Origin: a virus
Lineage: Duplodnaviria; Heunggongvirae; Uroviricota; Caudoviricetes
Virus record (IMG/VR): IMGVR_UViG_3300021066_000001
Strand: one strand, 5' to 3'
DNA: 64,000 nt
Of the stretch, positions 11,172-45,731 are shown in pieces (within the stretch, counting starts at the first letter, position 1; every line of letters begins with the position of its first letter). A model generated the notes under the pieces. That model worked only from the letters and a program-made list of their open reading frames with translations, was not told where the DNA came from and searched no databases. The position numbers and the translations under genes are program-made.

Positions 11172-11836
11172 CAGGCCGCCCCCAGGTACTTCTGAACGAG
11201 CTCCTCGGTGCGCGGCGGAATCCACCCAGCTGGCTTGCGTACGTCCCAGGTCGAGCCGCGCTTGGAGTCCGCCGCGTTAAGCACTCGCTCCTTCGCCATG
11301 TTAGCTCGTTGCACGTCAGTCCACAGCTCATTCCACTGGATGAGGGTGAAACCCATCCGGTAAGCACCGTACAGGCAATTTTGATAGAGGGAGACGAGCG
11401 CGTTCTTGACCCCAACCTCGTGGTTCGAGATGAACGCTAGGATGTAGTCGTCGATGTTCTTCCGCAGCACCCGGTGAAAGATCTGGTGATTCTCAGGGGT
11501 GAGCAGGTGGGGCTTGAGCCCGGTAAACTTGTCGGCCTCTTGGGACGAGAAGAGCATCTCCTCAGGCGTCCCTGCCTCGACGAGCTTGTTGAACTCGGGA
11601 ACGTCGATTCCGTGAAGGAGGGCACAACCGCAGGTGATGTAGACCAGGTCGATCAGCGAGTCGATCGCTGTCGCTAGATCTTGACGCATGTACGCGTCGA
11701 CGTACTCCTCAAGCTCCTCGTGGAAGAACTTGACTCGAAACTCGAAGAGACCTTGCTCGAGCTTCGTGAAGTGAGGAGGGGTTACGAGCGCGAACTTGTC
11801 GTGAAAGTCGCGTACATCCTGACAGTAGTTGACCAT
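11171..11836 (-). CDS. All-alpha NTP pyrophosphohydrolase (MazG/dimeric dUTPase-like)
   Basis: FFHEELEEYVDAYMRQDLATAIDSLIDL matches the EExxE...ExxD metal-binding pattern. Confidence 0.45.
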   Translation of the reverse strand: MVNYCQDVRDFHDKFALVTPPHFTKLEQGLFEFRVKFFHEELEEYVDAYMRQDLATAIDSLIDLVYITCGCALLHGIDVPEFNKLVEAGTPEEMLFSSQEADKFTGLKPHLLTPENHQIFHRVLRKNIDDYILAFISNHEVGVKNALVSLYQNCLYGAYRMGFTLIQWNELWTDVQRANMAKERVLNAADSKRGSTWDVRKPAGWIPPRTEELVQKYLGAA

Positions 11837-11896
11837 TGAATGCTCCGAAGATAGAGCATTCTAAGCTCCCGGTCAACTAAAGGAAATTTTACCGAG

Positions 11897-12812: not shown

Positions 12813-14162
12813 TTACTTCGAGTCGAACTCGATGAGGTAGCGCGGCCGCGCTTGCGACAGGCGGTAGACGATCATCTCGTTATTCATCACGCCCGACTTT
12901 TTGGCTTGAGCGTACATCGAGTCGTAGCCGCTGGGCAGCCGGCCAGTCGGGTTGCTGGGCGTGTAGTAGTTGCCCATCGCGACGTCGAAGAGGAACATGA
13001 AGCAGTTGGAGTCGCGGCGGCCGCCGTCCCAGTAGCCGTAGCTGTAGTTGAGGGATTTGGTCGACTGGTCGCTGAAGTAGAGGCCGTCGCCGAACATGCG
13101 GCCGGTGATGTTGATCGAGCCGCCGCTGCGCGGAATGATCAGGCCCGACTTCAGGATCGACAGCACGTTGAAGACGCGCGTGCCGTGCCAGAGGGTCCAG
13201 TTGTTCTTCGCCGCCTGGGCGACCGGGTCATTCTCGAACGCCTTGGAGGCGCCCGGCAGGTCGACCTCGAAGAAGCGCACCGGCTTGAGGTGACGCGACT
13301 CGTGGATGTTGTTCGCGCTCTCGCGGAACATCTTGATGATGCGATCGATCATCTTGCCGTCCGTGAGGACCTTGATCTCGGAGTCGAAGACGTTCGGCAT
13401 GTCGGCGATCGACTTGTCGGCCGCGATCGCGCTCTTCGCCCTAGACTCGGCGAGGTCGGCCGAAGCTTCCATCTGGTCCAGCATCGTGTTCTGGCGCTGG
13501 AGGGCGTTCATGTCGGGGATGAAGGCGCGGTGCCAGCCGCGCGAGTGGCCGACCTTTTGCGGCACCTTGCGGAGATAGGCGCCCAGCTTGTTCATGAAGG
13601 CAGGGTTGTCGAAGTCACCGCGCTGGACGTAGACCGCGAGGTCCTGGAGGATCGTGCGAGCGTCGATGATCGAAACCTTGCCGATCACGCCGACGGCCGA
13701 CGAGATCACGCCCGTCTTCAGGTCGATGTCGATCATGCCACCGGACGAGGCGATCAGCTCATGCTTGTTCGCCTTGACGAGCCGCTCGACGAGGTCATGG
13801 AGAACAGGGTCAGCGGCCTTGACGAGCTGTGACTTGGCCGCCTCGACCAGGACGACCTGGCTCTTGACCGGACCGGTGGGCCCGGTCGGTTGGCGCTCAG
13901 CGATGACGTTGACGATCTCGTAGCCCTTGAGGAGCTTCTCGGCGATCTTGCCGGCGAGGTTGAGTTGCTTCGGGGGCTCGACGTTCAGCGTGTCACGGCC
14001 GACGCGGCCGTACTTGACGATGATGCCGGCGGGGTCCTTGACGAACTCCCAGACCTTGTTATTGTTGTTCTCGGGGTCAGTGCAGACGAACTTTGCGGTG
14101 TCGAGCTGTGCGTATTGTGCGGCGAGCTTTTTTGCGGCTTCTTTATCGAGTTGGACGACCAT
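12813..14162 (-). CDS. PARP-family ADP-ribosyltransferase with N-terminal WGR domain
   Basis: WGR-like KVWEF...KYGRVG; catalytic H-Y-E signature: TLWHGT (His-Gly-Thr), GRMFGDGLYFSDQSTKSLNYSY (Tyr), NEMIVY...YLIEF (Glu). T4-late-like TATAAATAG 53 nt upstream. Confidence 0.7.
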   Translation of the reverse strand: MVVQLDKEAAKKLAAQYAQLDTAKFVCTDPENNNNKVWEFVKDPAGIIVKYGRVGRDTLNVEPPKQLNLAGKIAEKLLKGYEIVNVIAERQPTGPTGPVKSQVVLVEAAKSQLVKAADPVLHDLVERLVKANKHELIASSGGMIDIDLKTGVISSAVGVIGKVSIIDARTILQDLAVYVQRGDFDNPAFMNKLGAYLRKVPQKVGHSRGWHRAFIPDMNALQRQNTMLDQMEASADLAESRAKSAIAADKSIADMPNVFDSEIKVLTDGKMIDRIIKMFRESANNIHESRHLKPVRFFEVDLPGASKAFENDPVAQAAKNNWTLWHGTRVFNVLSILKSGLIIPRSGGSINITGRMFGDGLYFSDQSTKSLNYSYGYWDGGRRDSNCFMFLFDVAMGNYYTPSNPTGRLPSGYDSMYAQAKKSGVMNNEMIVYRLSQARPRYLIEFDSK

Positions 14163-15954: not shown

Positions 15955-16760
15955 CCGAGGTGCTTCTCCCTCATGCGCTCGAGAGTAACTTGTGCGCCTC
16001 GCGGAGGGATTGCTCCGAAGACGACCTCTCGGTAGGTGCGCAGGTAGCTGATGGCTTGTGCTTGGGTCCAAGCGTGGATCACGTAGTAGAAGGCTCCCTC
16101 TTGCTGGGTGTCAGGGACATCCTTGAACGCGGAGGAGAGCTTCTTCACCTGTTCCTTCTCGAGGCCGATGAAGCAGAGCTCCCAGACTCGCTTGCGCCGC
16201 CGGATCTCAAGCTTGATCTGCTCGCCGCGAGAGTTGAGGCGAGGACTCATCGGCTCGGTGATCGGGATGATCTCAAACCAGGACACCCGCACGTCGTCAT
16301 AGCGAGCGTGCGGTGGCCAGTACCGATTCGGAACCTCTCTCAGGTCGTAATCGACGTAGCCCTCGGAGGATCTGTCACCGCGGCTTGGCACCTCGAAGAA
16401 CATCCACGCGAGGGACAGCCAATCGATGACGCGCTCTCGCTCCGTGAAGTTGCGAAGTCGTCCCATGCATCCCCGGTGCACGTGCTGTCGGGTCTCGCGA
16501 TCATAGACCTGGTCGTCGAGAGACTCCGACGAGTTGACCCACCGCTGGCCGCAGAGCGGACACTTTTGTCCGACCAGATTGGCGCCCATGCGCCATGCCA
16601 CCAACTCTCCGTCCTCGCTGAGAACGCCGATCATGAACTGGTTGAACTCGTCGTAGCCGGTGAGCTGGTCGTGCGTCACCGGACGCTTGATGAATCCTCT
16701 CACCTGAGCCATCAGCTTCGAGCTCATGCCCAGATCCTCATGAAGATGTCGGCGGTCCAC
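15951..16760 (-). CDS. Hypothetical protein with CxxC...HxxC zinc-binding motif
   Basis: ORF track; CPLCGQRW...HVHRGC. Confidence 0.45.
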   Translation of the reverse strand: MDRRHLHEDLGMSSKLMAQVRGFIKRPVTHDQLTGYDEFNQFMIGVLSEDGELVAWRMGANLVGQKCPLCGQRWVNSSESLDDQVYDRETRQHVHRGCMGRLRNFTERERVIDWLSLAWMFFEVPSRGDRSSEGYVDYDLREVPNRYWPPHARYDDVRVSWFEIIPITEPMSPRLNSRGEQIKLEIRRRKRVWELCFIGLEKEQVKKLSSAFKDVPDTQQEGAFYYVIHAWTQAQAISYLRTYREVVFGAIPPRGAQVTLERMREKHLG

Positions 16761-17512
16761 CCGTTGACGATGTCCGAAACCTGTCCGTCGCCGAGCTCGA
16801 TGAGGCGCCAGCCGCCGTCGACGCGCTGAGCGACGTCGAGCGAGAAGAACTTGCTGCGGACCTCGGGAATGATGTCGTAGACAAACATCGGCACAGGCAC
16901 GTCACCGAGCGAAAACAGCGTCCCGTTCAAGATGAAGTAGCGACGCTCGCTACCAGCAACATACTCTTCGGCGCGTCGAAAGGTAATTCCTCCCTCGAGC
17001 TCGCGGTACTGGCGCATCGCCCTGATGATCTCCGTCACCTTCTCTGGAGAGTCGGCGATCGAGCCTGGAGCCGTCTTGAGGGACTTGACGTAGTCCTTGA
17101 TGAAGATCTCGCCCCAGCCGAGCTTGGCGAACTCGGCGGCGTGGTCATCGTTGAGGTTGTAAAACCGCGACTCGGTGGTGTACTGCTGGATCACCGGGTT
17201 GTGGTACCACCCGTAGATCCAGTGAGTGCGGGCGTACTCGTCGACCTGAGTGAGCGGTGTGGCGCCGCGTGAGAGGATCGCGTCAACGAGCTGTCCGTAC
17301 TGCGGCACCGTAAGCATCCATCCCCGATAGACGACGGTCGCCTCCTCGGGGATCTTGCCGATTCCCTTGAAGGTGTACGAGCGCTGAAGCTCGTCGAGGT
17401 CGAAGAGCGACGCTGAGAAGCCCATGCTGAGGGCGAGCGCATGCTGATCCGCGACGAGCTCGTCGGGTTTCTTCCTGCCGAGCGGGTCGCAAGGAAAGAG
17501 GAAGTGAATCAC
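16724..17512 (-). CDS. ATP-grasp fold protein
   Basis: Length and motif pattern (IFIKDYVKS...GSIADSPEK...RRYFILNGTLF...RLIELGDGQVSD) are consistent with phage ATP-grasp/DUF4343 proteins. Confidence 0.45.
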   Translation of the reverse strand: MIHFLFPCDPLGRKKPDELVADQHALALSMGFSASLFDLDELQRSYTFKGIGKIPEEATVVYRGWMLTVPQYGQLVDAILSRGATPLTQVDEYARTHWIYGWYHNPVIQQYTTESRFYNLNDDHAAEFAKLGWGEIFIKDYVKSLKTAPGSIADSPEKVTEIIRAMRQYRELEGGITFRRAEEYVAGSERRYFILNGTLFSLGDVPVPMFVYDIIPEVRSKFFSLDVAQRVDGGWRLIELGDGQVSDIVNGWTADIFMRIWA

Positions 17513-18702
17513 TCGGCCTCCGCGTTCGTCTGGACCAGGTTGAGCTGCTCGAGCGGGTACTCGTCGAGGTGGTGCTTCAAGAAGTAGCCCTTGTAGTCCG
17601 GCTCCTGGCCCGAGTAGCGCTTCATCAGGAGGCCGAAGTACGGGTAGCCGTCCTTGTGCTTGATCGCGAACGACTTCTTGTCGAGGGCCTTGCTCGCCTC
17701 GTACGTCTTCTCGACATCCTCGATGATCTTGTCGATGCGCGCCACCACCTCGGCCTCGATCTTGAGGATCTCCGAGATGTCGACGCCCTCGCCCACCAAC
17801 TTGCCCTTGAGGTCATCGAGCTGCTCACCGACCACCGCCTCCGCGATGTCGCGCACACGCAGGAACGTCATGTACTTGTGGCGCTCGATGTAGTCCTTGG
17901 TCTTGAGCTTGACCATCTCGCCGCTCTTGAACTGGATCACCCAGCCCTCGACGCCGGTCTTCGACGCCAGCAAGTCGATCACCTCGGCGTCGACGACGTG
18001 ATCCGCCTCGTCGCCGAACAAGATCGCGCGGGCCTCGACGTCCTCTTGCACCAGCGGCACCTCGAAGGTGCGGTGCAGATCGTAGAGCTCTTCGTACGTC
18101 ATGTAGCGACCGGTCACGTTGTCGCGAACGTGCAGCAGGTCGAGCGACGGCTCCTGGTAAGCCAGAACGATGCGCGACGTCGGCGACGTCCACTCGAAGA
18201 TCGCCGTCATGCCGAGCGACACGACGTGCTCGCAGAGCGAGTCGTAGCGATGCCGGATGTCTGGGTCTGAGTCGAGCCACTTGTACGTCGCCTTGACGAC
18301 GTCCGACTCGAACGACTTCTTCGACTTAAGCTTGTAGAGGCGGTTGCGCGACATGTCAAACATGTCGACCGTGTGGATCATCGAGCCGTCACGCTTCACC
18401 ATCACGCGAGTCATCTCGTCCCACGGTAGCGCGTCGACGCGCGACTCCGGGCGCTCGTTGAGGTTGAAGAACTTGTGGAGCGGACGCGAGATGATGCGAC
18501 CGTCCTTGAAGACGACGCCGCGCGCCTCGCGCGAGAACGGGCAGTCGAACGTCCCCTCCGCCGCGACGACGTACGAGCACACGACGGTGCCGTTCGACTG
18601 CTCCATGAAGCGGATCTCGGTCTTGTCCGCGACCGCTTGGCGCATCAAGATGTCGTTGCTGAGGTTGGGGAACATGAGGCCTCGATGGAGTCCGACGTAC
18701 AT
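17509..18702 (-). CDS. rnlA: RNA ligase, Rnl1 family (T4 RnlA-like)
   Basis: Nucleotidyltransferase motifs: KxDGS (VKRDGSMI), EGWVIQF (motif IV), VKLKTKDY (motif V). Confidence 0.75.
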   Translation of the reverse strand: MYVGLHRGLMFPNLSNDILMRQAVADKTEIRFMEQSNGTVVCSYVVAAEGTFDCPFSREARGVVFKDGRIISRPLHKFFNLNERPESRVDALPWDEMTRVMVKRDGSMIHTVDMFDMSRNRLYKLKSKKSFESDVVKATYKWLDSDPDIRHRYDSLCEHVVSLGMTAIFEWTSPTSRIVLAYQEPSLDLLHVRDNVTGRYMTYEELYDLHRTFEVPLVQEDVEARAILFGDEADHVVDAEVIDLLASKTGVEGWVIQFKSGEMVKLKTKDYIERHKYMTFLRVRDIAEAVVGEQLDDLKGKLVGEGVDISEILKIEAEVVARIDKIIEDVEKTYEASKALDKKSFAIKHKDGYPYFGLLMKRYSGQEPDYKGYFLKHHLDEYPLEQLNLVQTNAEAE

Positions 18703-19550: not shown

Positions 19551-19963
19551 CTCACCACCCAGTACTTTCCGCCCTCTCGCGGGTGAGGCTCACAGATCTT
19601 TCCGTTGACGATCGCCTTGTTGCCGAAGATGCACGAGCCCCGGATGCAGTTATATCCGTTGTGATAGAGGACGTCGCACTGAAAGGTCGACATCTGCCCC
19701 ACCCTGATCCTCGGCTCGACGAGCGTCGAGCCTTGCGGGGCGAACCAGTAGTCGGCCTCGGCCGTAGAAAAGTTGACCTCCATCAGCGCGGCGAAGAGCT
19801 CGCTTCTGAGGATGAGAGAGTCTTGCTCGGCCTCGACGTATGCGAAGTGCCGGCCGTCTCGCTCTGGCACCTCGAGCATCTCCCCTGGCTTCACCGAATA
19901 CAGGTAGATCGGTAGCGACTTGAAGTCGAGCTCGATCGTGTCACCAGATCGTGGGAGATTCAC
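19547..19963 (-). CDS. Hypothetical protein
   Basis: ORF track. Confidence 0.5.
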   Translation of the reverse strand: MNLPRSGDTIELDFKSLPIYLYSVKPGEMLEVPERDGRHFAYVEAEQDSLILRSELFAALMEVNFSTAEADYWFAPQGSTLVEPRIRVGQMSTFQCDVLYHNGYNCIRGSCIFGNKAIVNGKICEPHPREGGKYWVVR

Positions 19964-20538
19964 TCGATCATCTCGTCGATCTGCTTGAAGAGGTTCGAGA
20001 GCCCTAGGCTCTTGTCGTTGACGATCAGGTGATCGAACCCCTTGACGAAGCTGATCCCCTGCTCTGACTCGTGAGCGTACCGGTCATCCTTGGTGAGGTC
20101 GGGGACCTGCAAGTAGATGAGCACGGCGCCTGGTTGCTCCCTGAGCCACTCGGCCTCGTTCTCGAAGCGGACGTCGGTGATGATCGTGCCGCGCTTGATC
20201 TTGATGTTGTTCATCACCTCAAGCGCGGCACGCTGGATCCAGACGTCCTTGCGAAGCATGTTGCGACCGTACTCGGTGCCGAGGAGCTGCATCGCGCGCC
20301 TGGGCGAGAAACCCCAGAACGGGTCGATCTGCTCCTTGAGCACGCGGTCCTCCATCTGCTCTGGCGTGAAGCCGAAGAGGATGACGCACGCCTGCTTGAT
20401 CGGCTTGGCGAAGGCATAGCGGTTGAAGCGATCTGGAAACTTCGCTTGCAGGTAGTTCGCAACGGTGTCCTTGCCGCCGTTGAGAGGACCGTGGATCCCG
20501 ATGAGGTTGACGGAGTTGACGGAGACTTTTGAGAGCAT
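19960..20538 (-). CDS. Deoxynucleoside monophosphate kinase (T4 gp1-like)
   Basis: GPLNGGKDT P-loop and overall similarity to T4 gene 1 dNMP kinase. Confidence 0.7.
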   Translation of the reverse strand: MLSKVSVNSVNLIGIHGPLNGGKDTVANYLQAKFPDRFNRYAFAKPIKQACVILFGFTPEQMEDRVLKEQIDPFWGFSPRRAMQLLGTEYGRNMLRKDVWIQRAALEVMNNIKIKRGTIITDVRFENEAEWLREQPGAVLIYLQVPDLTKDDRYAHESEQGISFVKGFDHLIVNDKSLGLSNLFKQIDEMIE

Positions 20539-20585: not shown

Positions 20586-21146
20586 GTGATGCTGCTCAGC
20601 GAGCTCGCCATCTCAGACGTCACCTTTCACGTGAGCGAAGACCGTGAGGGTGACAATAACCGCGGCTTCCGCGTGGATCGCATCGAAGCGAAGCGTGACG
20701 GGAAGGTGATCGGCTACATCCAGGTCTCTTACATCCCGAGCGAGCGCTTCAAGAAGTTCTACACTAGCCTCGAGCAATACACCCGACACATCGCTGGAGG
20801 GCATCCGCCCAGCGAGGATCCTGAGACCCGCAAGCGCCAGGAGCGAGCGTTTCGAGACTTCGAGCACTACCACGTTGACAAGCCGTTCGTCGAGTTCATC
20901 AGGGTGATGGACGAGATCGACGGAGCAGATAGGAGCTATCGTCGCCAGGGTTTAGGCCTCGAGCTCTACAAGCAGATGTTCAAGTACCTGAAGAGGCGTG
21001 GGCTCAAGCTCTACGCCTCGAACCTCCAATCAGACGAGGCTAAGGCCGCGTGGGACAAAATGGAGAAGATCTTCGTGGTGAAGCGCGAGATGTTTCGCGT
21101 GCACCGCAAGGATGTCGAGCGCCGCTACCTCGCCGCGCTCAGGTAG
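20586..21146 (+). CDS. Hypothetical protein, possibly GNAT-like acetyltransferase
   Basis: RRQGLGLELYKQMFKYL resembles the GNAT motif A (Q/RxxGxG/A); weak. Preceded by CTAAATAG. Confidence 0.35.
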   Translation: MMLLSELAISDVTFHVSEDREGDNNRGFRVDRIEAKRDGKVIGYIQVSYIPSERFKKFYTSLEQYTRHIAGGHPPSEDPETRKRQERAFRDFEHYHVDKPFVEFIRVMDEIDGADRSYRRQGLGLELYKQMFKYLKRRGLKLYASNLQSDEAKAAWDKMEKIFVVKREMFRVHRKDVERRYLAALR

Positions 21147-21761: not shown

Positions 21762-22811
21762 TCACGTCAGCTTCTTGAGTGCCCTCAAGACACACTCTGG
21801 CACGTACTGACGCACCGCGCTCTCCCACCCCTCGAGGTGAAGCATGCTCTTGACGACCGACGAGCTCACCTCTGTTAGGTGCGACGGCGGCATCAGGAAG
21901 ACCGTCTCGACCTCTGGCGCGATCTTCTTGTTGACCAGGTTGAGCTGTGTCTCGTAGTCGAAGTCAGTGACGTTGCGGATGCCCCGGAAGACAAACTTGG
22001 AGCCTGTCTCTCTAGCGTAGGCGACGAGCATCTTGTTCTGGGGAAGCGCCGTGATGTTGACCGCTCCTTCTGCCAGGGGCGTCTCTCTGATCGCTTCGGC
22101 CACGAGGGCTTTCCGCTCCTCGAAGTCAAACAGGCCCTTCTTGTTCGGATTATACGCAACCACGACATCGACGGCGTCAACGAGGTCAAGAGCTTTTTCG
22201 ATCAGCCACATGTGACCCTCGGTGATCGGATCGAACGAGCCAGCGACGATCCCTCGCGTGATGCCCCTGGCGACGTCGACCGCCCGTAGCGCCGCCATGT
22301 TGAGATCAGAGTCGGTCGTGTCGATGATCAAGTCGCACTTGTGTGCGTGATCGTGCCAGTCTCCCTGGCTAGCGATGATCGCCTTGATCTTCTCACGGGT
22401 GAAGCCGTTCCGCTTCATCACGCGTTCGATGCGAGTCTCCTCGTCTGCGACAATCGCGATGACCTTGTCGAATTGGTCATCCATCCCCATCTCGAAGAGG
22501 AGGGGAAACTCGACGATGATGTCTCGCTTTCCCGCGTTGAGAAGCAGATTGAGCTTGAGGGACATGAAGGAGCCAAAGAGACCCTCTACCCAGCGCAGCT
22601 TCTCAGGTGCTTGGAAGACGATGTCCGAGATCGCCTTGCGATCGCTGGTCCCGAAGTACTCGAAGAGCTTCGCCTTGATCTCGGTGTCCTCGTAGAGCTC
22701 ACGCACCAGGTCGTCGATGTTGACGAAGTTGAACTCCGTGAGGAGAAGCTTGAGCTTGTTGACGAGCGTCGTCTTTCCGCTTCCGATGCCGCCGGTGATG
22801 GCTATCTTCAC
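21762..22811 (-). CDS. Fusion protein: dephospho-CoA kinase (CoaE-like, N-terminal) + phosphopantetheine adenylyltransferase (CoaD, C-terminal)
   Basis: N-terminus MKIAITGGIGSGKTT...NIDD (CoaE P-loop + DxD). C-terminus GSFDPITEGH...FRGIRNVTDFDYETQLNLVNK...VFLMPPSHL..SSSVVK aligns closely with E. coli CoaD. Confidence 0.75.
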   Translation of the reverse strand: MKIAITGGIGSGKTTLVNKLKLLLTEFNFVNIDDLVRELYEDTEIKAKLFEYFGTSDRKAISDIVFQAPEKLRWVEGLFGSFMSLKLNLLLNAGKRDIIVEFPLLFEMGMDDQFDKVIAIVADEETRIERVMKRNGFTREKIKAIIASQGDWHDHAHKCDLIIDTTDSDLNMAALRAVDVARGITRGIVAGSFDPITEGHMWLIEKALDLVDAVDVVVAYNPNKKGLFDFEERKALVAEAIRETPLAEGAVNITALPQNKMLVAYARETGSKFVFRGIRNVTDFDYETQLNLVNKKIAPEVETVFLMPPSHLTEVSSSVVKSMLHLEGWESAVRQYVPECVLRALKKLT

Positions 22812-24202
22812 GCGCGAAGTTCCTTAGAGAGGTCAAGCGCCTCGAGGTCGCGGACGTATAGGGTGACGTTCGTCGAGTCTCTGTAGAACTTCAGCTGGAT
22901 TTGAGTGTCGGTGATCTGCTTCTCGAGCTTCTCGATCTCGTCCCTAGTCAGGCGGTAGAGCGGGATCGCCATCAGCTGGTCGATCAGGGTGAACTTCAGG
23001 TCGGCGAGCAGCTGCTGCCACTCCACCTTGGTCTTCTTGGAGAACTTGGAAGCGTTATCGCCGTGAGTGTAGTGCTTGACCCAGCGGAGCCGCTCGTTGA
23101 GCTCGACGAGCTCCGCCTCGAGCTGCTTGATCACCGCTTGGCGGCGCTCCTCGTACTTGTCGAGACGAAAGTCGATGAAGTAGTCGATCAGCTCCTCCGG
23201 GCCAGAGAAGCGCTTCAGCTTGCCGTGCGGCAGCCACACGGTGAAGTTCTCCGTGACGCGCCAGACCAGCTTGAACTTCTTGACGAGCTCCTCGTCGTCG
23301 GCGTAGCCGGTGGTCCGTGGCACCGTGATCACCCAGTCCCAACCCTGCGAGGTCGAGTTCGCCTGGAAGCTCTTGATGTAGCCGGCGTCCTCGAGGGTGT
23401 AGAGGTACTGCTTGTAGTTCTCCTCCCACGTGCCCGGCGGCAGCTCCGTGATGCGGAGCGTCGTCGAGTTGACCTTCTCGATCTTGCCCTTGACGGTCAC
23501 TTGCTTCGTGGCCGGGTCCTTGGTGACCTCACCGGTGTAGCCGCGGAACCACGGGACCAGGGGCTTGGGCTTGCCGCCCTTCAGGGCCGCCAGGATGTAC
23601 CGCTTCAGGTCCTCCGGGTTGTACTGGAGGAAGGAGGAGGCATGTCCGGTGCCCATCGAGTCGTTCCCGTTGATCAAGACGTTCGGGAGGATCGGGTAGT
23701 AGAACTTCGGCTCGATCTGGTCACCGTCGTTCTCGAGGTATTCCAGGATGAGGTCATCTTCCTTGATGAAGATCTTCCGGAAGATCGGGTTCAGGTCGGT
23801 AAAGATATAGCGGTCGGCGCCAGCGGCCGGCGAGAGCCGGTTACCGAACTGCCCGATCGGCTGCAGGTAATTGATATTGTTGGTCCCCGGGAAATTCTGG
23901 GCGAGACCGACGATCGCGCCAGAGAGGGAGCCCTCGCCGTGATCGTAGTGGGTGATCTCAGCGATGAAGTTGGCTAGCTGAGCGACCTTGATGCCGTTAC
24001 CCGGGGTGATGCTGGGCGCCTTTTTGAGGGTCCCGTAGATCACCTTGCGCTGGCTGATCTTGAAACCGTCGACGATCGACGGGATCATCCGGCGGTTGTT
24101 GTACATGCTGAACTCGCGAACCGGACCGTCGAAGAGCTCCTTGACGGATTCGGCGCGATTCGGGTTGAACTCTGGAATCGGCGCCTGGGTAGGTCTCGTC
24201 AT
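22808..24202 (-). CDS. Type II DNA topoisomerase, A-like subunit (T4 gp52-like)
   Basis: DGFKISQRKVIYG (DGLKPxQRK motif), and a downstream block consistent with the catalytic Tyr region (AAGADRYIFTD). Confidence 0.8.
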   Translation of the reverse strand: MTRPTQAPIPEFNPNRAESVKELFDGPVREFSMYNNRRMIPSIVDGFKISQRKVIYGTLKKAPSITPGNGIKVAQLANFIAEITHYDHGEGSLSGAIVGLAQNFPGTNNINYLQPIGQFGNRLSPAAGADRYIFTDLNPIFRKIFIKEDDLILEYLENDGDQIEPKFYYPILPNVLINGNDSMGTGHASSFLQYNPEDLKRYILAALKGGKPKPLVPWFRGYTGEVTKDPATKQVTVKGKIEKVNSTTLRITELPPGTWEENYKQYLYTLEDAGYIKSFQANSTSQGWDWVITVPRTTGYADDEELVKKFKLVWRVTENFTVWLPHGKLKRFSGPEELIDYFIDFRLDKYEERRQAVIKQLEAELVELNERLRWVKHYTHGDNASKFSKKTKVEWQQLLADLKFTLIDQLMAIPLYRLTRDEIEKLEKQITDTQIQLKFYRDSTNVTLYVRDLEALDLSKELRA

Positions 24203-24208
24203 AGGTGC

Positions 24209-24219
24209 ATTATATCACA
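24209..24219 (-). promoter_or_regulatory. Extended -10 promoter TGTGATATAAT, 6 nt from the ATG (leaderless configuration)
   Basis: Minus-strand TGTGATATAAT-gcacct-ATG. Confidence 0.4.
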
Positions 24220-24253
24220 AAATGTGCATATTTTGTCACAAAACTTAGAGCTT

Positions 24254-24424
24254 TCACGGCGTAAGCGTGAATTCGTGCTCCATGTAGTCGGCTTCGCACT
24301 CGATCAAGTCTCGATGACGACACTCGTTGCAAGCGGTACCGAGCCCATGATTCTCGTAGCACGCTCCGCATTCGGAGCAAACCGGGTAGCCGTCCTCGTC
24401 AAATTCTTGGGGATGCAAGCTCAT
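24254..24424 (-). CDS. Small zinc-ribbon protein (56 aa)
   Basis: CSECGAC...CNECRH; ATG overlaps the topoisomerase B stop (ATGA). Confidence 0.45.
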   Translation of the reverse strand: MSLHPQEFDEDGYPVCSECGACYENHGLGTACNECRHRDLIECEADYMEHEFTLTP

Positions 24425-26364
24425 TCTACCTCCTCCGCGCTTTCTATGTCCAGCGTCTCGACGTCGTCGTCGGTCAGCTTCAGCCACTCCTTCCGCTTGT
24501 CGGATGAGCCGTACGCCTTCGAGAAGACTAGCTCGATGACGTCGTGGTCGTCTTGGCTCCGCGCCTCGATGCGAATCAGGTGGTCGTTGATGCTCTGGAA
24601 GTACTCGGTGAACTCCTCGTCTTGCGAGGTCGCTAGCCCCTTGTAGTACTTGGAGCGGTACTTCGTGCCCTTGTGCTTCTCCTCCCACTCCTTGAAGTCC
24701 TTGATCTCATAGAAGGAGAGCGGCTTCTTGCTGTTGCCGACCCAGACCTTGACGATGGGCGTCATGAAGCGGTGGATGACACCGAGCTTGAAGAGCTCAG
24801 GCCAGAAGCGGTGGAAGTTGTTGATCAGCAGGCCCTGGATGTGGGCGCCGTCGTGGTCCGCGTCGGTCATCAAGCCGATCTTGGCGTAGCGGAGCTGGTG
24901 GATGCTCTTGACCGGCTCCCCGATCTTCAGCCCCATCGCCACCATGATGTTGAAGAACTCCTCGTTTGCGGTGATCTTGCTCACCTTGGCCGAGCTGACG
25001 TTGAGCGGCTTGCCGCGCAGCGGGAGAAAGCCCATGCGGTCACGGTCGCCAGTGCTCTTGCCCACCTTCGCAGCCGAGTCACCCTCGGTCAGGAAGAGGA
25101 TGCACTTCTGGGGGTGCTTGCCGGCCCAGTTGGCGTCCTGGAGCTTGACGATGCGGCGAGCTGGCGTCTTGTCGGCCTCCTTGTCGAGGTCCTTCAGCTG
25201 CTCGCGCTCCTTGACGAGGGTCTTCGCCTCGTGCCAGCGGATGATCGCCTGGACGATCTCGCTCTTGTGGATCTCCTTGACCATCCGATCGGACGGCGCC
25301 CAGCTCGTGCCGAACTCCTTGACCGCCGTCGTCAAGTTCTCCTTCGTCTGCGAGTTGTACCGCGGACGGTGAATGCGAGCATTGATGAAGAGGTGGAAGT
25401 GGGCGAAGATGTCAGACGGCTTGAGGTCGATCTTGTTCTTCCGCTTGATCAGCTCGCGCAGCTGGTTGGCCAGCTGGTATGCGACGTAGTCGACGTGCGT
25501 GCCGCCGATCGTCGTCTCGGTGCTGTTGACGAAGGAGACGTGCTGCAGGCCGTCCTCGCTCCGGGCGACGCCGATCTGCCAGTCCGAGTTCGCCTCGTAG
25601 ATGAAGTCCTTGCCGTAGAGGTGAATGTAGTCCTCGAAGGACTTGACCTGGATGCGCTCACCGTTGAGGAAGACCTTGAGACGCGGGTTGCATGCCGCGA
25701 CGTCGTAGACTCGCTTGACGAGCTTGGCGTAGTTGCCGTCGTCGAGCGTCACCTTGAGGTGAGCGTAATCCGGAGTGTAGGTGATCCGAGTAAAGCCCTT
25801 CGCGCCGTCCCTGATCTTGGGCTCGGTGACCTGACGCATGTTGTTCGACCAGGTCTGCTTGAAGGCCTTCTTGCCGTCACAGGTCTCGACCGTGAACTCG
25901 GTCGAGAAGATGTTGGTGAGCGACGCACCCTCCCCGTTTTGGCCGGTGAGGTCGGCCGCGGCGTCCTTGTCGTCGTCGTTGAAGTTCGAGCCTGACCGGA
26001 GGTACCCGAAGATCATCGTCGGGATGTGCTCGCCGTACTCACCGTGGATGACGACCGGGATGCCTCCGTTGTCCTCGACCGAGATCATGCCGGTCTTCCG
26101 ATCGATCTCCACCTTGACAGCGTCGAGGCGAGCACCCTCGGGGGTCTTCGAGAAGTCGACCGAGTTTGAGATGATCTCGTCGAACAGCTTGAGAAAGCCG
26201 GGCGCCCACGAGAGCTCCCTCTCGACCATCTTGCCACCCTCGACCACCCACGTCTTCGCGGTGACTGGCTCCTTGGCACCGATGTAGCGGTTCGGTCGAA
26301 GCAAGACGTGCTCGACGTCCGTCAGCTTCTGGTACTTCTTCTCGATCGAACGTTGACTTGTCAT
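24421..26364 (-). CDS. Type II DNA topoisomerase, ATPase/Toprim subunit (T4 gp39+gp60-like, GyrB family)
   Basis: GHKL ATPase N-terminus, Toprim LTEGDSAAKVGKS...D.D, 647 aa. Confidence 0.85.
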   Translation of the reverse strand: MTSQRSIEKKYQKLTDVEHVLLRPNRYIGAKEPVTAKTWVVEGGKMVERELSWAPGFLKLFDEIISNSVDFSKTPEGARLDAVKVEIDRKTGMISVEDNGGIPVVIHGEYGEHIPTMIFGYLRSGSNFNDDDKDAAADLTGQNGEGASLTNIFSTEFTVETCDGKKAFKQTWSNNMRQVTEPKIRDGAKGFTRITYTPDYAHLKVTLDDGNYAKLVKRVYDVAACNPRLKVFLNGERIQVKSFEDYIHLYGKDFIYEANSDWQIGVARSEDGLQHVSFVNSTETTIGGTHVDYVAYQLANQLRELIKRKNKIDLKPSDIFAHFHLFINARIHRPRYNSQTKENLTTAVKEFGTSWAPSDRMVKEIHKSEIVQAIIRWHEAKTLVKEREQLKDLDKEADKTPARRIVKLQDANWAGKHPQKCILFLTEGDSAAKVGKSTGDRDRMGFLPLRGKPLNVSSAKVSKITANEEFFNIMVAMGLKIGEPVKSIHQLRYAKIGLMTDADHDGAHIQGLLINNFHRFWPELFKLGVIHRFMTPIVKVWVGNSKKPLSFYEIKDFKEWEEKHKGTKYRSKYYKGLATSQDEEFTEYFQSINDHLIRIEARSQDDHDVIELVFSKAYGSSDKRKEWLKLTDDDVETLDIESAEEVE

Positions 26365-33854: not shown

Positions 33855-33862
33855 GTCAGGAG

Positions 33863-33873
33863 ATTGTATCACC
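33863..33873 (-). promoter_or_regulatory. Extended -10 promoter GGTGATACAAT (leaderless configuration)
   Basis: Minus-strand GGTGATACAAT-ctcctgac-ATGATG. Confidence 0.35.
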
Positions 33874-33907
33874 GGCGCGTTCGCGAGTAAACTGCGAAGA
33901 TGTAACA

Positions 33908-41786: not shown

Positions 41787-42025
41787 TGGATGCGCTCCAC
41801 GTGGGTGACAGGGGACTCTTCCGAGTCGTCGGGAGAGCGGAGAGCGAGGCGATCGCCGACGTTAAGCTCGGTGACCTGATCGAGCTCATCGGCCGTGAGG
41901 TTGATGTCGCTCACGAGCTCAAGCAGACGGAGCGGCTTCGAGCACGCCATCGTCTGCTTGAGCTCGTTGATCCACCCGTACGGGCCGCCGACGACCAGGT
42001 ACTCCTTCGGCTGCTTGCCGCTCAT
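41783..42025 (-). CDS. Hypothetical protein
   Basis: ORF track. Confidence 0.45.
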   Translation of the reverse strand: MSGKQPKEYLVVGGPYGWINELKQTMACSKPLRLLELVSDINLTADELDQVTELNVGDRLALRSPDDSEESPVTHVERIQ

Positions 42026-43005: not shown

Positions 43006-44502
43006 TTAAGCCATTGCTCTCGCGCGAACGTCGTCGAGCTTCTCGTCGATGAGCAGCACGCCGTTCTCGTAGATCGTGACCATCTGGTCCTGGTACTCGG
43101 CGTCGATCTTCGAGTCCATGTCGAGCGTCACGTACTCGCCGGTGAGAGCGCTCCGGTACAGCGAGAGGCGCCCGCCCTGCGACTTCTTGCCAGCGTCGGT
43201 GATCGGGTTCTTCGCGATCGGCTCCCAGCGGTTTCCGCGGCGAATCGCCGACGCCTTCTGCGCGAAAGAGTAGGTGTCACGGTTGACCTTCTGGAGGAGC
43301 GCGCCGCCAGAGCCGAACACGATGTTGCAGGCCGCGAAGCCCATCTCGGTGACCTGGTCGAGCACCGCGTTCATCAGGTCGAAGTCGACCCCGTCGCCCC
43401 AAATGACTCCGACGTTGTTGATCACGAGAAAGCCTTTCGAGTTCTTCGTGGTGCCGAACGCCGCGGCGAGCTTGCGGAGAATCGCCGGGAGGAGCTCGAG
43501 AGGGTCGCCCGAGTCTGGGCGGAGAACCACCTTGGCGCCAGAAGCGACGATCATGTCCCTCAGTGAGCAAACGACATCGGTCTCACGGAGGGTGTCGTAA
43601 CCGTCGATGACGATCGACACGATGCCGCCCGGCTTGGCCTGAGTCTTGATCACCGTCTCCAGGTACTCGCGCTGACCCATCGCGCCATACGCGGTCTGCA
43701 CGCTGTGCTCGGTGGCAAAAACGCTGTAGGCCGCCATGTCACAGTTGTAGTAGAAGTTCGCCGCGCGTACGCCGTCGATCGTGTCCGATCCGCCGAAATA
43801 GATCAGGTGGGACATGCCGCCGTTTTCGGCTTGCTCTCCGCAAGTGACCCCGCGGCCGCCGAAATCGTGGAGAGCGATCGCGGTCCAGGGCACCGGCGCC
43901 GGATCGTTCGACATCGCGTCATACAGACGCAGCGCACGCCAATTCTTGTAGTCGTTCGACGCGATCGTCGTCATATACCAGACGACGCGCTGAACCGCGG
44001 TCTCGATGTACGACGCGAGCCAGAACAGGTCGGGATCGGTGCACTCGATCGTCCAGAGAGCGTTGCCGCTCGGGACTCGCGTGCCTTCGCGAACGCCGCG
44101 GATCTTCAACGGCAGAAAGCCGTTGTACTTCTTGACGACCTTTTCCCAGCCAGCACGGTTGAAGGTGACGGCGCCTTCACCAGCGATCAAGTGCTTCTTG
44201 GCAAAGGCCTCGGCCTCGTCGATCATCTCCATGGTGATCTGCTTAGAGAGCAGCACCTTTTTGATGAACATCTGCATGCCGACGGGGACGATCGTTTCGC
44301 CCTTTTTACGGGCCGCGAGATAGGAGAACATTCCGTTCGTCGCGGCCGGGTAGATCGCCCAGTGGCCGAGCTTGTAGCTATCCGCTTCGAGCGGAATGTT
44401 GCGGGGCATCAGCGGCTGGCCGCCGCTCCACGCGGTGATGGTCTTCTGGTCAGGTGTGTCTCCGGGTTCCCGGAGGGGTGCAAGTTCAACTGCATTTTTC
44501 AT
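43006..44502 (-). CDS. nadV: Nicotinamide phosphoribosyltransferase (NAMPT/NadV)
   Basis: 498 aa; N-terminal ...LEADSYKLGHW and overall NAMPT-like length and blocks. Confidence 0.8.
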   Translation of the reverse strand: MKNAVELAPLREPGDTPDQKTITAWSGGQPLMPRNIPLEADSYKLGHWAIYPAATNGMFSYLAARKKGETIVPVGMQMFIKKVLLSKQITMEMIDEAEAFAKKHLIAGEGAVTFNRAGWEKVVKKYNGFLPLKIRGVREGTRVPSGNALWTIECTDPDLFWLASYIETAVQRVVWYMTTIASNDYKNWRALRLYDAMSNDPAPVPWTAIALHDFGGRGVTCGEQAENGGMSHLIYFGGSDTIDGVRAANFYYNCDMAAYSVFATEHSVQTAYGAMGQREYLETVIKTQAKPGGIVSIVIDGYDTLRETDVVCSLRDMIVASGAKVVLRPDSGDPLELLPAILRKLAAAFGTTKNSKGFLVINNVGVIWGDGVDFDLMNAVLDQVTEMGFAACNIVFGSGGALLQKVNRDTYSFAQKASAIRRGNRWEPIAKNPITDAGKKSQGGRLSLYRSALTGEYVTLDMDSKIDAEYQDQMVTIYENGVLLIDEKLDDVRARAMA

Positions 44503-44561
44503 CGTAAGCTCCTTACGGTTAAATTACAGGCTTGCGTCTTTCGCTCACCTGGTGCTGCAAT

Positions 44562-45731
44562 TCACTTGATCTTTCCGCCCACGTTCGCTCGCTCGAGGCG
44601 GTCGGCGAAGTCCGAGATGATGTCCCAGTGGTCATCGAAGAGCTGGTCCGACATGTTGATCGCTTCGCCGACCGGAAACCACTTCGCCTTGACGGCGTCA
44701 TCGGAGCCCTTCACCTTGGGCAACTTGATCTTGCCGTCGACGACGATGTCAGCCAGCTCGAAGCAGTAGGCCATCGAGACGACGCGGCCGCGGCCGGGCG
44801 AGCGATCCGGGTGCTCGAAGAAGTGGTTGAACTTCAGCGAGTTGCGGAGGGCGAGCTCGGGGACGTCGAGCTTAGTCTCTTCGTAGAGCTCACGAACGGC
44901 GGTGTCGAAGGTCCACTCGAACTCGTCGACGTGGCCGCCCGGGAGCGCCCAGAGGCCCTTGCCGGGTGCAGCGCGGCGTTGGACGAGGAGGATGTGGCCG
45001 GTCTGAAAGACGACGGCGTCGGCCGCGAACTCGATGATCGGGTACTTGCGCACCGTTGAGAGGGCCTTCTTCGCCTCGTTCTTCTTGCGCTCTACCTCGA
45101 ACTCCTCGAGGAGGAGTGAGTAGGCCGGCGTCTCCTTGAAGCGCTCGAGGAAAGCGCGTGACTCGTGAGGGATGAACGCGCGGAGCAGCATCTCGCGGTT
45201 GCCGTCGGTGATCTGGTTGCCCTCGAACTCGTTGCGGAAGAAGAGGTTGCGGAGGGCGGTCGCGGAGAGAACCTTGCTGACGTTGCGGTTCTCCTCAACG
45301 AAGTCCCGCTTCCAGTTGGCCTGGGCGAGGAGCATCTGCAGGTAGAACGTACTAGCGTCGCGCTCGGAACCGGTGAGGTAAACCTCCCTGGCATCGGGCG
45401 CCGCGCGTCTGACCTCGGCCTGGACCTCGGCGAGCCACTTGGTATTGTTATACCTGTAGTCGCGGGCGAAGACGACCTCGAGGTCCGCTAGATCCGACCC
45501 TGGGCGAGGGGCGTTAGCGTTGAACCAATTCTCGTACCAGTTCATGATCACAGCGGCACGTTCGCCGCCGGTGAAGGGATTCTTGGTGGTGCGAGGCTGC
45601 CAGGTCGAGCCGATGACGACGATGACCTTGTTGCTGAGGTTGAGCGCTCGCTCGAGAAGCTCAGCGTGCCCGACGTGGAACAACGAAAACCTACCGATGA
45701 GGACCGTGAGGTCCCGTTTGCTACCTGTCAC
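44562..45731 (-). CDS. natV: Bifunctional NMN adenylyltransferase (NadM-type) / Nudix hydrolase
   Basis: HxGH nucleotidyltransferase motif (GRFSLFHVGH), Nudix box GGHVDEFEWTFDTAVRELYEETKL; GTG start with AAGGAG SD. Confidence 0.8.
   Translation of the reverse strand: MTGSKRDLTVLIGRFSLFHVGHAELLERALNLSNKVIVVIGSTWQPRTTKNPFTGGERAAVIMNWYENWFNANAPRPGSDLADLEVVFARDYRYNNTKWLAEVQAEVRRAAPDAREVYLTGSERDASTFYLQMLLAQANWKRDFVEENRNVSKVLSATALRNLFFRNEFEGNQITDGNREMLLRAFIPHESRAFLERFKETPAYSLLLEEFEVERKKNEAKKALSTVRKYPIIEFAADAVVFQTGHILLVQRRAAPGKGLWALPGGHVDEFEWTFDTAVRELYEETKLDVPELALRNSLKFNHFFEHPDRSPGRGRVVSMAYCFELADIVVDGKIKLPKVKGSDDAVKAKWFPVGEAINMSDQLFDDHWDIISDFADRLERANVGGKIK

Follow-up and report, generated by a model that had tools for sequence, protein, structure and literature searches.

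A dephospho-CoA kinase fused to a bacterial-type phosphopantetheine adenylyltransferase is encoded beside the topoisomerase II genes of a jumbo phage

Analysis of a 64-kb stretch of viral DNA (hereafter the window), which is a section of a 395.7-kb jumbo-phage contig, revealed a gene (21762..22811, minus strand) coding for a single polypeptide that combines an N-terminal CoaE-type dephospho-CoA kinase (DPCK) with a C-terminal phosphopantetheine adenylyltransferase (PPAT) of the bacterial CoaD type. This assignment is supported by the sequence and structure comparisons given below. Both enzymes are ordinary, and it is only their fusion and its viral setting that are unusual. Here we show which enzymes the two halves of this protein represent and that their active sites are complete, describe its fold, place the gene among its phage neighbours and the family among other sequences, and propose a role for it during infection.

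The open reading frame, as delimited by the ORF listing and the profile matches, begins with GTG and comprises 349 codons followed by a stop codon; an identical protein (P0001) is encoded on a 395,674-bp contig. That the DNA belongs to a phage is indicated by a collagen-like tail fibre, a split T4-type topoisomerase II, Rnl1, a T4-type dNMP kinase and relatives in IMG/VR. The motifs on which the initial annotation had relied were all recovered, namely GGIGSGKTT (residues 7-15), IDD (32-34), GSFDPITEGH (191-200), RGIRNVTDFDYETQL (276-290) and VFLMP (304-308), and the combined agreement of motifs and profiles with CoaE and CoaD is far above chance. The plus-strand ORFs that run across the same interval are ordinary shadow ORFs of DNA with 59% G+C.

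The N-terminal half (residues 1-182; 22266..22811, minus strand) had been described as CoaE-like, and two models recovered it above their cut-offs: the Pfam CoaE domain (PF01121; 91.9 bits versus 27; residues 3-165, profile positions 3-174 of 180) and the coaE equivalog TIGR00152 (90.2 bits versus 65.55; residues 3-166). Its best matches among solved structures are the DPCKs 1uf9, 2grj and 1vhl (residues 3-178), with about 25-30% identity to solved DPCKs, and a Foldseek search aligned it to the Burkholderia DPCK 4i1v_A (TM 0.79, rmsd 2.3 A, 193 columns). Conservation was assessed across 53 homologues with 28-53% identity. In the P-loop GGIGSGKT (residues 7-14; 22770..22793, minus strand), a match to the pattern GxxGxGK(S/T), the residues G7, G12 and K13 are invariant in all 53, as is D33 (22713..22715, minus strand), the putative catalytic base, which was placed by alignment to the E. 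coli DPCK chains 6ari and 1t3h and falls on the second Asp of the 'IDAD' stretch of E. coli CoaE. Its counterpart is D33 of the E. coli enzyme, the conserved Asp after strand 2.

The C-terminal half (residues 186-349; 21765..22256, minus strand) was recovered by the coaD equivalog TIGR01510 with 157.9 bits (cut-off 103.3; residues 187-347) over model positions 2-153 of 155, so that the near end-to-end alignment with CoaD noted earlier holds; the broader Pfam CTP_transf_like model matched residues 189-321 with 59.7 bits. Residues 186-347 match PPATs in the PDB with e-values down to 2e-28 and 34-40% identity, and every one of the top 34 PDB sequence matches is a PPAT. In a Foldseek comparison this half superimposes on E. 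coli PPAT (6b7a_A) with a TM score of 0.92, an rmsd of 1.4 A and 36% identity. The initial annotation had named a closer relationship to NadD or TagD as the outcome that would overturn its reading; the comparison gave 157.9 bits for CoaD, 26.5 for NadD and 16.3 for TagD. Accordingly, NadD, NadR, TagD and citrate lyase ligase were ruled out on scores as the identity of this half, with the first three at 16-36 bits.

Three sequence motifs of the PPAT active site are present in this half: 1) GSFDPITEGH (residues 191-200; 22212..22241, minus strand), the (T/H)xGH nucleotidyltransferase motif, which aligns with GSFDPITYGH of PPATs and in which G191, S192, F193, D194, P195, G199 and H200 are invariant across the 53 homologues; 2) RGIRNVTDFDYE (residues 276-287; 21951..21986, minus strand), a PPAT-specific substrate-binding motif that aligns with RGLRAVSDFEYE of the S. 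aureus PPAT, with R276, G277, R279, D283 and E287 invariant and Y286 nearly so; 3) SSS (residues 316-318; 21858..21866, minus strand), the ATP-phosphate-binding serine motif, which corresponds to the ISSS of PPATs (here VSSS, residues 315-318), with S316 and S317 invariant and S318 kept in 90% or more. The first and third of these motifs align with the S. aureus PPAT as well. K224 too is invariant. We take K224, R276, R279, D283, Y286 and E287 to be the equivalents of K42, R88, R91, D95, Y98 and E99 of E. coli PPAT. Bacterial PPATs are homohexamers.

An AF2 model of the entire 349-residue protein was obtained with a pLDDT of 94.2 and a pTM of 0.82. Helices 32-92, which form the helical CoA-binding domain of the DPCK fold, have a pLDDT above 90 in this model. 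The last helix of the CoaE domain (residues 170-182) leads almost directly into the first PPAT strand (residues 186-191), leaving a connector of three residues, and the two domains are thus joined essentially without a linker.

Each half is therefore a full-length, motif-complete homologue with the same fold as bacterial CoaD (EC 2.7.7.3) or CoaE (EC 2.7.1.24); in bacteria these are products of separate genes, whereas the phage version is one polypeptide within a jumbo-phage topoisomerase operon. The protein had at first been likened to the eukaryotic CoA synthase COASY. The likeness stands as far as bifunctionality goes, in that PPAT and DPCK activities, as predicted for the phage protein, reside on one polypeptide. 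It does not extend to the type of PPAT: COASY has a PPAT of the eukaryotic and archaeal type, whereas the phage half is bacterial, and its score with the archaeal-type model NF001985 is well below the threshold (19.7 versus 104 bits). The profile matches also bear out that the order is opposite, with PPAT preceding DPCK in COASY, and DPCK (1-182) preceding PPAT (186-349) in the phage fusion, which in addition has no N-terminal targeting or anchor region. The reversed order, the bacterial-type PPAT and the missing N-terminal region together indicate that the phage fusion is independent of COASY.

The CoaE-CoaD architecture was found in about 75 metagenome clusters (at 50% identity), with lengths of about 340-390 residues, similar to the phage protein; in IMG such fusions are automatically labelled 'pantetheine-phosphate adenylyltransferase/dephospho-CoA kinase'. 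Most of these clusters belong to a clade found on phage contigs of 150-700 kb, individual members lie on phage-like contigs of 276-718 kb, and some are from uncultured bacteria. Apart from its own copy, the fusion studied here shares at most 52-53% identity with other members. The cellular groups (P0092, P0079 and P0071) form separate clusters, and the first of these is encoded in a clearly cellular locus beside BipA, Dxs and PyrH-like genes, a housekeeping context suggesting that it is probably the CoA enzyme of its organism. Hence, the earlier statement that bacteria keep the two genes separate is sound as a generalization but not as a rule. Fusions in the CoaD-CoaE order with a bacterial-type CoaD also exist among uncultured IMG sequences, with comparable architecture and length. 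In phages, coaD and coaE occur as separated genes, as genes overlapping in either order and as fusions in either order, a classic signature of functional coupling. Several IMG/VR loci (L011, L014-L018, L024 and L028) that were at first taken as fusions proved to be overlapping separate genes. A scan of GTDB yielded at least 80 loci, nearly all with stand-alone CoaD, and one seeming full-length match, in a 'Tenericutes' MAG (L157), resolved into two overlapping genes in different frames.

Near-identical DNA was not found among GenBank phages, and in that collection no record among the matches listed covered 80% or more of the fusion, with matches confined to single domains. Similarly, a fold search of BFVD returned no two-domain match, and we found neither a description of a phage or bacterial CoaE-CoaD fusion in the literature nor an instance in cultured phages. 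XacN1, RsoM2USA and other phages that are the closest cultured relatives by topoisomerase are absent from the matches to the CoaE half and from the 40 full-protein matches listed. Stand-alone coaD genes, which are single-domain, unlike the fusion, are annotated in Brevundimonas and Caulobacter jumbo phages, in Myxococcus phage Mx1 and in Microcystis phage MaAM05, and a PPAT has been reported for Microcystis phage PhiMa05. One virome paper reports coaD and coaE, listed as snow-virome genes, among the most abundant auxiliary metabolic genes, together with NAMPT and nadM (PMC11097641).

Within the window the gene follows, on the same strand, those for the topoisomerase II large subunit (24421-26364; Pfam DNA_gyraseB/Toprim), a 56-residue ORF lying between the subunit genes (24210-24380) and the gp52-like topoisomerase II subunit (22808-24202; Pfam DNA_topoisoIV). 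The best cultured relatives of these topoisomerase genes are those of jumbo phages. Translation-coupling signals are apparent at 22808..22825 (minus strand), where a Shine-Dalgarno-like AAGGA (22821-22825) precedes the GTG start (22809-22811), which overlaps the TGA stop (22808-22810) of the gp52-like gene; read from the sequence, this GTGA overlap couples the two. The co-oriented upstream genes (22808..26364) and the fusion probably constitute one transcription unit. A sigma-70-like site at 26429-26400 is a consensus match only.

Other genes of the phage related to cofactor and nucleotide salvage code for a NAMPT (43006-44502, minus strand; NF006629 with 487.8 bits versus a cut-off of 405), a NadM-Nudix protein (44562-45731, minus strand; NadM and Nudix models with 250 bits, below cut-off), Apt, two thymidylate-synthase-family proteins, the dNMP kinase and MazG. 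No called gene in the window had a Pfam match to PanK or CoaC. A gene with a DFP domain (1687-2775) was considered as a further CoA-pathway component; it reached 75-82 bits with CoaB models, whose cut-offs are 217-265, and belongs to a tight, distinct family of about 365 residues, mostly annotated 'hypothetical' and typified by CPR bacteria, and so cannot be counted as support for a pathway. A single-protein scan of IMG/VR with it found nothing, and the 187-residue ORF upstream of it had no Pfam match. A GNAT gene adjacent to the fusion (20586-21146, plus strand) was likewise considered as a conserved, acetyl-CoA-using partner, a reading that was dropped since it is absent near the fusion at other loci.

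From these features we infer the enzymatic activities of the fusion, the timing of its expression and its physiological role. Most likely it is a bifunctional enzyme for the last two steps of CoA synthesis that draws 4'-phosphopantetheine of the host into CoA during infection. The CoaD domain would convert 4'-phosphopantetheine and ATP to dephospho-CoA and PPi, after which the CoaE domain would use another ATP to phosphorylate dephospho-CoA at its 3'-OH, yielding CoA. The overlap of stop and start codons suggests that the protein is made alongside the phage topoisomerase II, probably in the replication phase. The host pool of its substrate is fed by de novo synthesis, by turnover of the prosthetic group of ACP and by CoA breakdown. 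Jackowski and Rock (1984) reportedly found that PPAT is a secondary control point in E. coli, where 4'-phosphopantetheine accumulates and is excreted; extra PPAT and DPCK would therefore raise CoA. In this way levels of CoA and acyl-CoA might be maintained during the shutdown of host gene expression, and the fusion would be one member of a wider phage repertoire for cofactor and nucleotide salvage. Most plausibly the fusion goes back to overlapping coaE and coaD genes that lost the stop codon separating them, an arrangement in which the two activities would be kept close together and made in a 1:1 ratio.

An alternative suggested by analogy, which we regard as improbable, is that the fusion acts in counter-defence: during infection a putative host effector, for instance a pyrophosphatase or phosphodiesterase acting on CoA, would split CoA into 4'-phosphopantetheine and 3',5'-ADP, and the phage enzyme would rebuild it from the former and ATP, as NARP1/2/3 do for NAD+. 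Phage rebuilding of a depleted metabolite is proven for NAD+ (bioRxiv 10.1101/2024.02.11.579819; PMC13464706), and the starting point of the enzyme pair is exactly the main breakdown product of CoA. NARP2 (Nampt and Nmnat) resembles the fusion in being a two-step, ATP-dependent route by which classical salvage enzymes rebuild an ADP-containing cofactor, and the pair is often encoded beside CoA genes: NARP2-type genes lie less than 10 kb from CoaD or CoaE in seven of 18 representative viral loci (NadM-Nudix in 7, NAMPT in 5), and the same proximity was seen at roughly 17 loci when all 72 were counted, which lends the analogy circumstantial support. In relatives on 345-kb and 718-kb contigs the fusion is three to four genes from NAMPT, and in the latter a NADAR gene follows it directly; the window itself codes for NAMPT, NadM-Nudix and an Apyc1-like protein. 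NARP2 differs in its cofactor and enzymes, and it has been shown to act against host defence, a role with no known parallel for CoA. Against this reading, a search of the accessible literature yielded no defence system that depletes CoA, and we know of none. CoA is not mentioned in the NARP preprint (bioRxiv 10.1101/2024.02.11.579819), and PADLOC defence models gave no meaningful match for the fusion, only a trivial one to its P-loop. Moreover, the association is not reciprocal, as all ten NAMPT-centred viral loci have an adjacent NadM and none of the ten has CoaD or CoaE within 10 kb. Clustering of metabolic genes is a general tendency of jumbo phages, and in the window the fusion lies ~20 kb from the NAMPT/NadM-Nudix pair (43006..45731), inside an operon of replication genes. 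The wider version of the idea, in which the fusion and the other coaD/coaE pairs of jumbo phages form a CoA reconstitution pathway beside NARP2 as part of a cofactor-repair island, is likewise improbable.

Less probable still is that the two folds were kept for substrates other than CoA precursors, be it another phosphorylated metabolite or dephospho-CoA made as donor of a non-canonical RNA 5' cap. The nucleotidyltransferase superfamily is diverse in its substrates, weak secondary matches to NMNAT and NadR models were seen, and genes related to NAD and ADP-ribose (PARP, NADAR) occur near the fusion in this and in related genomes. However, the CoaD-specific residues beyond the generic HxGH are retained (K224, RGxR, DFxYE with its nearly invariant Y, and SSS), both halves pass their equivalog thresholds, with NadD, NadR and TagD models at 16-36 bits, and the structural match is to PPAT, at the rmsd of 1.4 A given above. 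Accumulation of dephospho-CoA is also hard to reconcile with a fused kinase that would consume it at once. Finally, many host-like genes occur in jumbo phages and some bacteria have the same fusion, but the least credible reading is that the gene was taken from a host not long ago and persists as a passenger without a role in infection: members found in phage contexts make up a deep clade of their own (33-53% identity to the query) and are spread over numerous large viral contigs, both active sites are strictly conserved, the best GTDB CoaD matches show 36-43% identity and are taxonomically scattered, and the gene agrees with its phage neighbours in G+C and strand.

As an enzyme that would complete CoA synthesis from 4'-phosphopantetheine, the fusion leaves knowledge of CoA biochemistry unchanged, both activities being textbook ones. 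Its compact, apparently rigid architecture of two bacterial-type domains in 349 residues makes it a possible tool for the synthesis of CoA and CoA analogues in vitro or in vivo, as well as a natural case in which to study channelling of the intermediate. What it adds concerns the phages: time and again jumbo phages encode precisely the two steps that lead from the salvageable intermediate 4'-phosphopantetheine to CoA, and more than once these have been fused. This recurrence suggests that large phages actively manage the CoA pool, as they do NAD+ and dNTPs. The frequent nearness to NARP2-type genes offers a concrete, testable lead: CoA upkeep may belong to the same virocell strategy, or possibly to counter-defence. 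Were the latter true, CoA-depleting defence systems would be predicted to exist, and CoA would join NAD+ as a central cofactor contested by phages and bacteria.

The ORF at 21762..22811 (-) is listed as a single reading frame of 349 aa with a GTG start, and its translation contains every motif quoted in the initial annotation, which had read it as a CoaE-like dephospho-CoA kinase (DPCK) followed by the phosphopantetheine adenylyltransferase (PPAT) CoaD. Searches with Pfam models recovered CoaE in the N-terminal half (PF01121; residues 3-165; 91.9 bits against a gathering score of 27) and CTP_transf_like in the C-terminal half (residues 189-321), and the NCBIfam equivalog models for coaE (TIGR00152; 90.2 bits against a cut-off of 65.55; residues 3-166) and coaD (TIGR01510; 157.9 bits against 103.3; residues 187-347, model positions 2-153 of 155) were both passed. 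The related NCBIfam models fared poorly on the C-terminal half: those for NadD gave at most 26.5 bits as against the 157.9 of coaD, and those for NadR, TagD and citrate lyase ligase 36, 16 and 21 bits; a better match to NadD or TagD, the outcome that the initial annotation had named as speaking against CoaD, was not seen. In a sequence search of the PDB the best 34 matches were all PPATs (E down to 2e-28; residues 186-347), followed in rank by 14 DPCKs (residues 3-178). By all sequence and structure criteria testable here the protein belongs to both CoaD and CoaE, and the original observation was a correct and solid reading.

An alignment of 53 full-length homologues, 28-53% identical to the query, revealed that hardly any columns other than the catalytic ones are invariant. 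In the kinase half the invariant residues are G7, G12 and K13 of the P-loop, which begins at residue 7, and D33, which aligns to the second Asp in the 'IDAD' motif of E. coli CoaE, the base proposed in the literature to activate the 3'-OH. In the PPAT half they comprise G191, S192, F193, D194, P195, G199 and H200 of the TxGH motif, along with K224, R276, G277, R279, D283, E287, S316 and S317; residues of this half correspond, in E. coli PPAT numbering, to K42, R88, R91, D95, E99 and S128-S130, the alignment itself having been made against S. aureus PPAT. Both active sites are, as judged from the alignment, intact, and their conservation across this range of identity argues for selection on both activities. 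An AlphaFold2 model built from the 53 homologues (mean pLDDT 94.2, pTM 0.82) leaves three residues between the final helix of the kinase (170-182) and the first Rossmann strand of the PPAT (186-191); there is thus practically no linker between the domains, and in the model their orientation to each other is predicted to be defined. Foldseek searches of the PDB with this model recovered E. coli PPAT for the C-terminal domain (6b7a; TM 0.92, rmsd 1.4 A, 36% identity) and Burkholderia DPCK for the N-terminal domain (4i1v; TM 0.79, rmsd 2.3 A).

Like the eukaryotic CoA synthase COASY, the phage protein would be bifunctional; unlike COASY, it has the opposite domain order and a PPAT half of the bacterial type (NF001985, the archaeal/eukaryotic PPAT model, reaches 19.7 bits, its cut-off being 104). 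The earlier description as a COASY-like fusion in reverse order therefore holds for bifunctionality and order but not for family membership, since domain order and PPAT type place the protein outside the COASY family.

The CoaE-CoaD fusion is not unique to this phage. A search of 5.8 billion proteins recovered about 60 clusters of full-length proteins in this order at 27-52% identity, some of them on contigs of 345, 360 and 718 kb and several already named 'pantetheine-phosphate adenylyltransferase/dephospho-CoA kinase' by IMG. When a profile was run against 1.84 billion representatives clustered at 50% identity, the best 150 matches listed included about 75 clusters that match CoaE-CoaD over the full length in a single hit. 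Many of the listed matches were proteins of about 350-400 aa in the reverse order, CoaD first and CoaE second (confirmed by Pfam in P0314, P0340 and P0351), and longer forms of 560-630 aa were also present. The homologue P0319 (589 aa) bears a C-terminal metallo-beta-lactamase (MBL) domain at residues 371-556; the same Lactamase_B_2/Apyc1-like domain is encoded by a separate gene (11031-11855) directly after the CoaE-CoaD fusion in the cellular locus L159, making an MBL-fold protein a possible conserved third partner.

Scanning IMG/VR contigs, with a check of the ORFs, recovered CoaE-CoaD as a single ORF in this window and in L007, L008, L009, L010 and L029/L046; coaE followed by coaD as separate but overlapping genes in L011, L014-L018, L024 and L028; the overlapping pair in the order coaD-coaE in L038, L040 and L043; a CoaD-CoaE single ORF in L048; the two genes 1-2 kb apart in L013 and L020; and one gene only on many jumbo contigs. 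This range of arrangements indicates two functionally coupled genes whose fusion has occurred more than once, apparently through stop-codon loss where the pair overlapped. A distance tree groups every member with a phage-like context (the identical copy P0001, P0009, P0023, P0043 and others) in a single deep clade, separate from several further clusters; the clade of jumbo-phage genes to which the fusion belongs is old and diversified. Among the members of those further clusters, P0092 lies among genes for BipA, Dxs, LysR, M16 peptidases and a UMP-kinase-like protein, and hence in a clearly cellular context; the statement that bacteria keep coaD and coaE separate thus applies to studied bacteria but not universally. 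Another of them, P0079, has type I R-M, Fic and PnuC genes beside it, and the contigs that carry it reach 1.2 Mb. A gene for PnuC, an NMN/nicotinamide riboside transporter, precedes the cellular-type fusions in loci L003 and L160 (the contexts of P0079 and P0071), again a CoA-NAD gene neighborhood, now in a cell; the heavily fragmented gene calls of L160 suggest an organism with an alternative genetic code. The best 80 loci of a GTDB scan were nearly all stand-alone CoaD, taxonomically scattered at 30-43% identity, so that nothing here points to a recent acquisition from a recognizable host. The GenBank phage collection searched contained no record covering at least 80% of the protein and no cultured phage with a CoaE-CoaD fusion, and BFVD viral proteins gave no two-domain match (best TMq 0.43). 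Phage coaD and coaE are already known as auxiliary genes, and fused proteins as automatic IMG annotations; our literature search found no published description of a CoaE-CoaD fusion or of any phage CoA synthase.

P0001 is encoded on a metagenomic contig of 395,674 bp (ena:ERZ27257322:k141_1025171), and G+C, strand bias, gene content and topoisomerase relatives identify the window as coming from a jumbo phage. Its G+C is 57-68% in 2-kb bins (about 59% overall), and nearly all genes lie on the minus strand. A block at 55882-59700 in an otherwise minus-strand region runs on the plus strand, opening with a 716-aa collagen-like tail fibre (55882-58032 (+); PHROG tail-fibre families, E 1e-97), which accounts for a local G+C of 68% and a change in AT skew. 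The window also carries a split topoisomerase II, a T4-type dNMP kinase (19960-20538), RNA ligase 1, a PARP-domain protein and many small ORFs of unknown function. By topoisomerase the nearest cultured phages, at 44-48% identity, are jumbo phages (Xanthomonas phages BUDD, X1, XacN1 and Xoo-sp13, Ralstonia RsoM2USA and Stenotrophomonas phages), from which a Gram-negative proteobacterial host is only a guess; GenBank phages contained no near-identical DNA. The T4 Rnl1-type RNA ligase (17509-18702 (-)), the R2K ATP-grasp protein after it (16724-17512 (-)) and a PNK/PSTK-like P-loop kinase elsewhere (33288-33911 (-)) together resemble a set of tRNA-repair genes that would counter anticodon nucleases. 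Host-like functions unusual in a phage include an M3-family oligopeptidase (60586-62610 (-)), an HSP20 small heat-shock protein (60020-60481 (-)) and, just past the right edge, a ribosomal protein L7/L12 homologue (L006, 7607-7999).

The start codon of the fusion was fixed by homology, the family consensus likewise opening MKIxITGGIGSGK. Direct reading of the coding strand around it (...AAGGAACTTCGCGCGTGAAG...) shows that the GTG (22811-22809) and the TGA with which the upstream gene ends (22810-22808) overlap, with AAGGA 9 nt 5' of the start. The two upstream genes encode both subunits of the T4-type split topoisomerase II, as identified by Pfam (DNA_topoisoIV, 22808-24202 (-), directly upstream; DNA_gyraseB/Toprim, 24421-26364 (-)), and a sigma-70-like consensus, a pattern match only, precedes the latter gene. 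From these features the fusion is probably the last, translationally coupled gene of a replication-gene transcription unit. Convergent with it is the sole plus-strand gene nearby, for a GNAT-family acetyltransferase (20586-21146 (+); PF00583, 31.7 bits), a potential acetyl-CoA user with no conservation beside the fusion in other phages.

Further CoA-pathway genes are not demonstrable from the window, in which Pfam found no PanK or CoaC domain on any called gene. A 362-aa DFP/CoaB-like protein (1687-2775 (-), ORF extending to 2952; N-terminal PF04127, 60.6 bits) reached just 75-82 bits where the CoaB cut-offs are 217-265, and it shares 50-64% identity with a large, tight family whose members are about 365 aa long, for the most part annotated as hypothetical and named mainly from CPR bacteria (Kaiserbacteria, Harrisonbacteria); on both grounds it is not counted as pathway evidence. 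It is unusually conserved between phage and CPR bacteria. Beside it lie parts of an ABC importer, namely an ATPase and a TauC/SsuC-like permease (3608-4447 (-) and 5048-5827 (-)) and an NMT1_3 binding protein (~571-1, extending past the left edge; L005 17127-18071). In B. subtilis an ABC system that takes up a CoA precursor has been described (PMC11487621), which makes this importer of interest.

Elsewhere the window encodes NAMPT (43006-44502 (-); NF006629, 487.8 bits against a cut-off of 405) and, by model matches, a bifunctional NadM-type NMN adenylyltransferase/Nudix protein (44562-45731 (-)). Just downstream are Apt (40620-41153), an adenine phosphoribosyltransferase that passes its equivalog model, and a SpoT-like HD hydrolase (42022-42648; model matches). 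A NAMPT-NMNAT pair constitutes NARP2, which overcomes NAD+-depleting defences (Osterman et al., bioRxiv 10.1101/2024.02.11.579819). In two relatives, on contigs of 345 and 718 kb, one passes NAMPT and NadM-Nudix and reaches the fusion 3-4 genes further downstream. When the ORFs lying up to 10 kb away were clustered all against all at 18 representative viral CoaD/CoaE loci, no neighbors recurred but NadM-Nudix (7/18) and NAMPT (5/18); at NAMPT-centred control loci NadM was adjacent in 10/10 and CoaD/E present within 10 kb in 0/10. The CoA genes therefore accompany the NAD module optionally, in some of the large phages, rather than as its obligate partner. In a snow virome coaD and coaE were among the most abundant viral auxiliary metabolic genes, with NAMPT and nadM, and that study itself notes that their purpose is unknown (PMC11097641). 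The PARP catalytic domain protein (449 aa; 12813-14162 (-); PF00644; phrog_23333), a possible ADP-ribosyltransferase, shares the genome with these NAD+ salvage genes, and in the 718-kb relative a NADAR gene directly follows the fusion. Other metabolic genes are MazG (53710-54117) and two of the thymidylate-synthase family (294 aa, 9664-10548 (-); 224 aa, 51124-51798 (-)), one of which may be a dCMP/dUMP hydroxymethylase-type DNA-modification enzyme; an Apyc1-like MBL protein (46571-47461 (-); Anti-Pycsar Apyc1 family PF23023) is a candidate cyclic-nucleotide-degrading anti-defence gene.

The phage gene thus encodes a CoaE and a CoaD domain, both intact, in a single, apparently rigid polypeptide; it is coupled to replication genes, and we consider its assignment as an enzyme of both activities very probable. 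It would convert 4'-phosphopantetheine with 2 ATP via dephospho-CoA to CoA, fusion providing equimolar synthesis and closeness of the two sites. 4'-Phosphopantetheine is accumulated and excreted by E. coli, and both ACP turnover and CoA pyrophosphatases regenerate it; PPAT is reportedly a secondary control point (Jackowski & Rock 1984). A phage providing just the last two steps would therefore tap this pool and increase or sustain CoA levels with no need of the early pathway. On such maintenance of the CoA pool as the physiological role our judgment is evenly balanced; assignment and role taken together make a likely reading. A NARP-like reconstitution of CoA, raised by analogy in the initial annotation, after attack by a CoA-cleaving defence would fit a substrate that is a CoA breakdown product and the proximity to NARP2 genes, but our literature search found no such defence, the NAMPT association is one-sided and the local context is one of replication genes, and we regard it as improbable. 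Action on a different substrate is still less likely given the invariant PPAT-specific residues and the equivalog scores, and a neutral passenger gene, disfavored by the depth of the clade of phage members and by the conservation of both active sites, is the least credible reading of all. What makes the fusion most interesting is its recurrent link to NAD+ salvage in jumbo phages.
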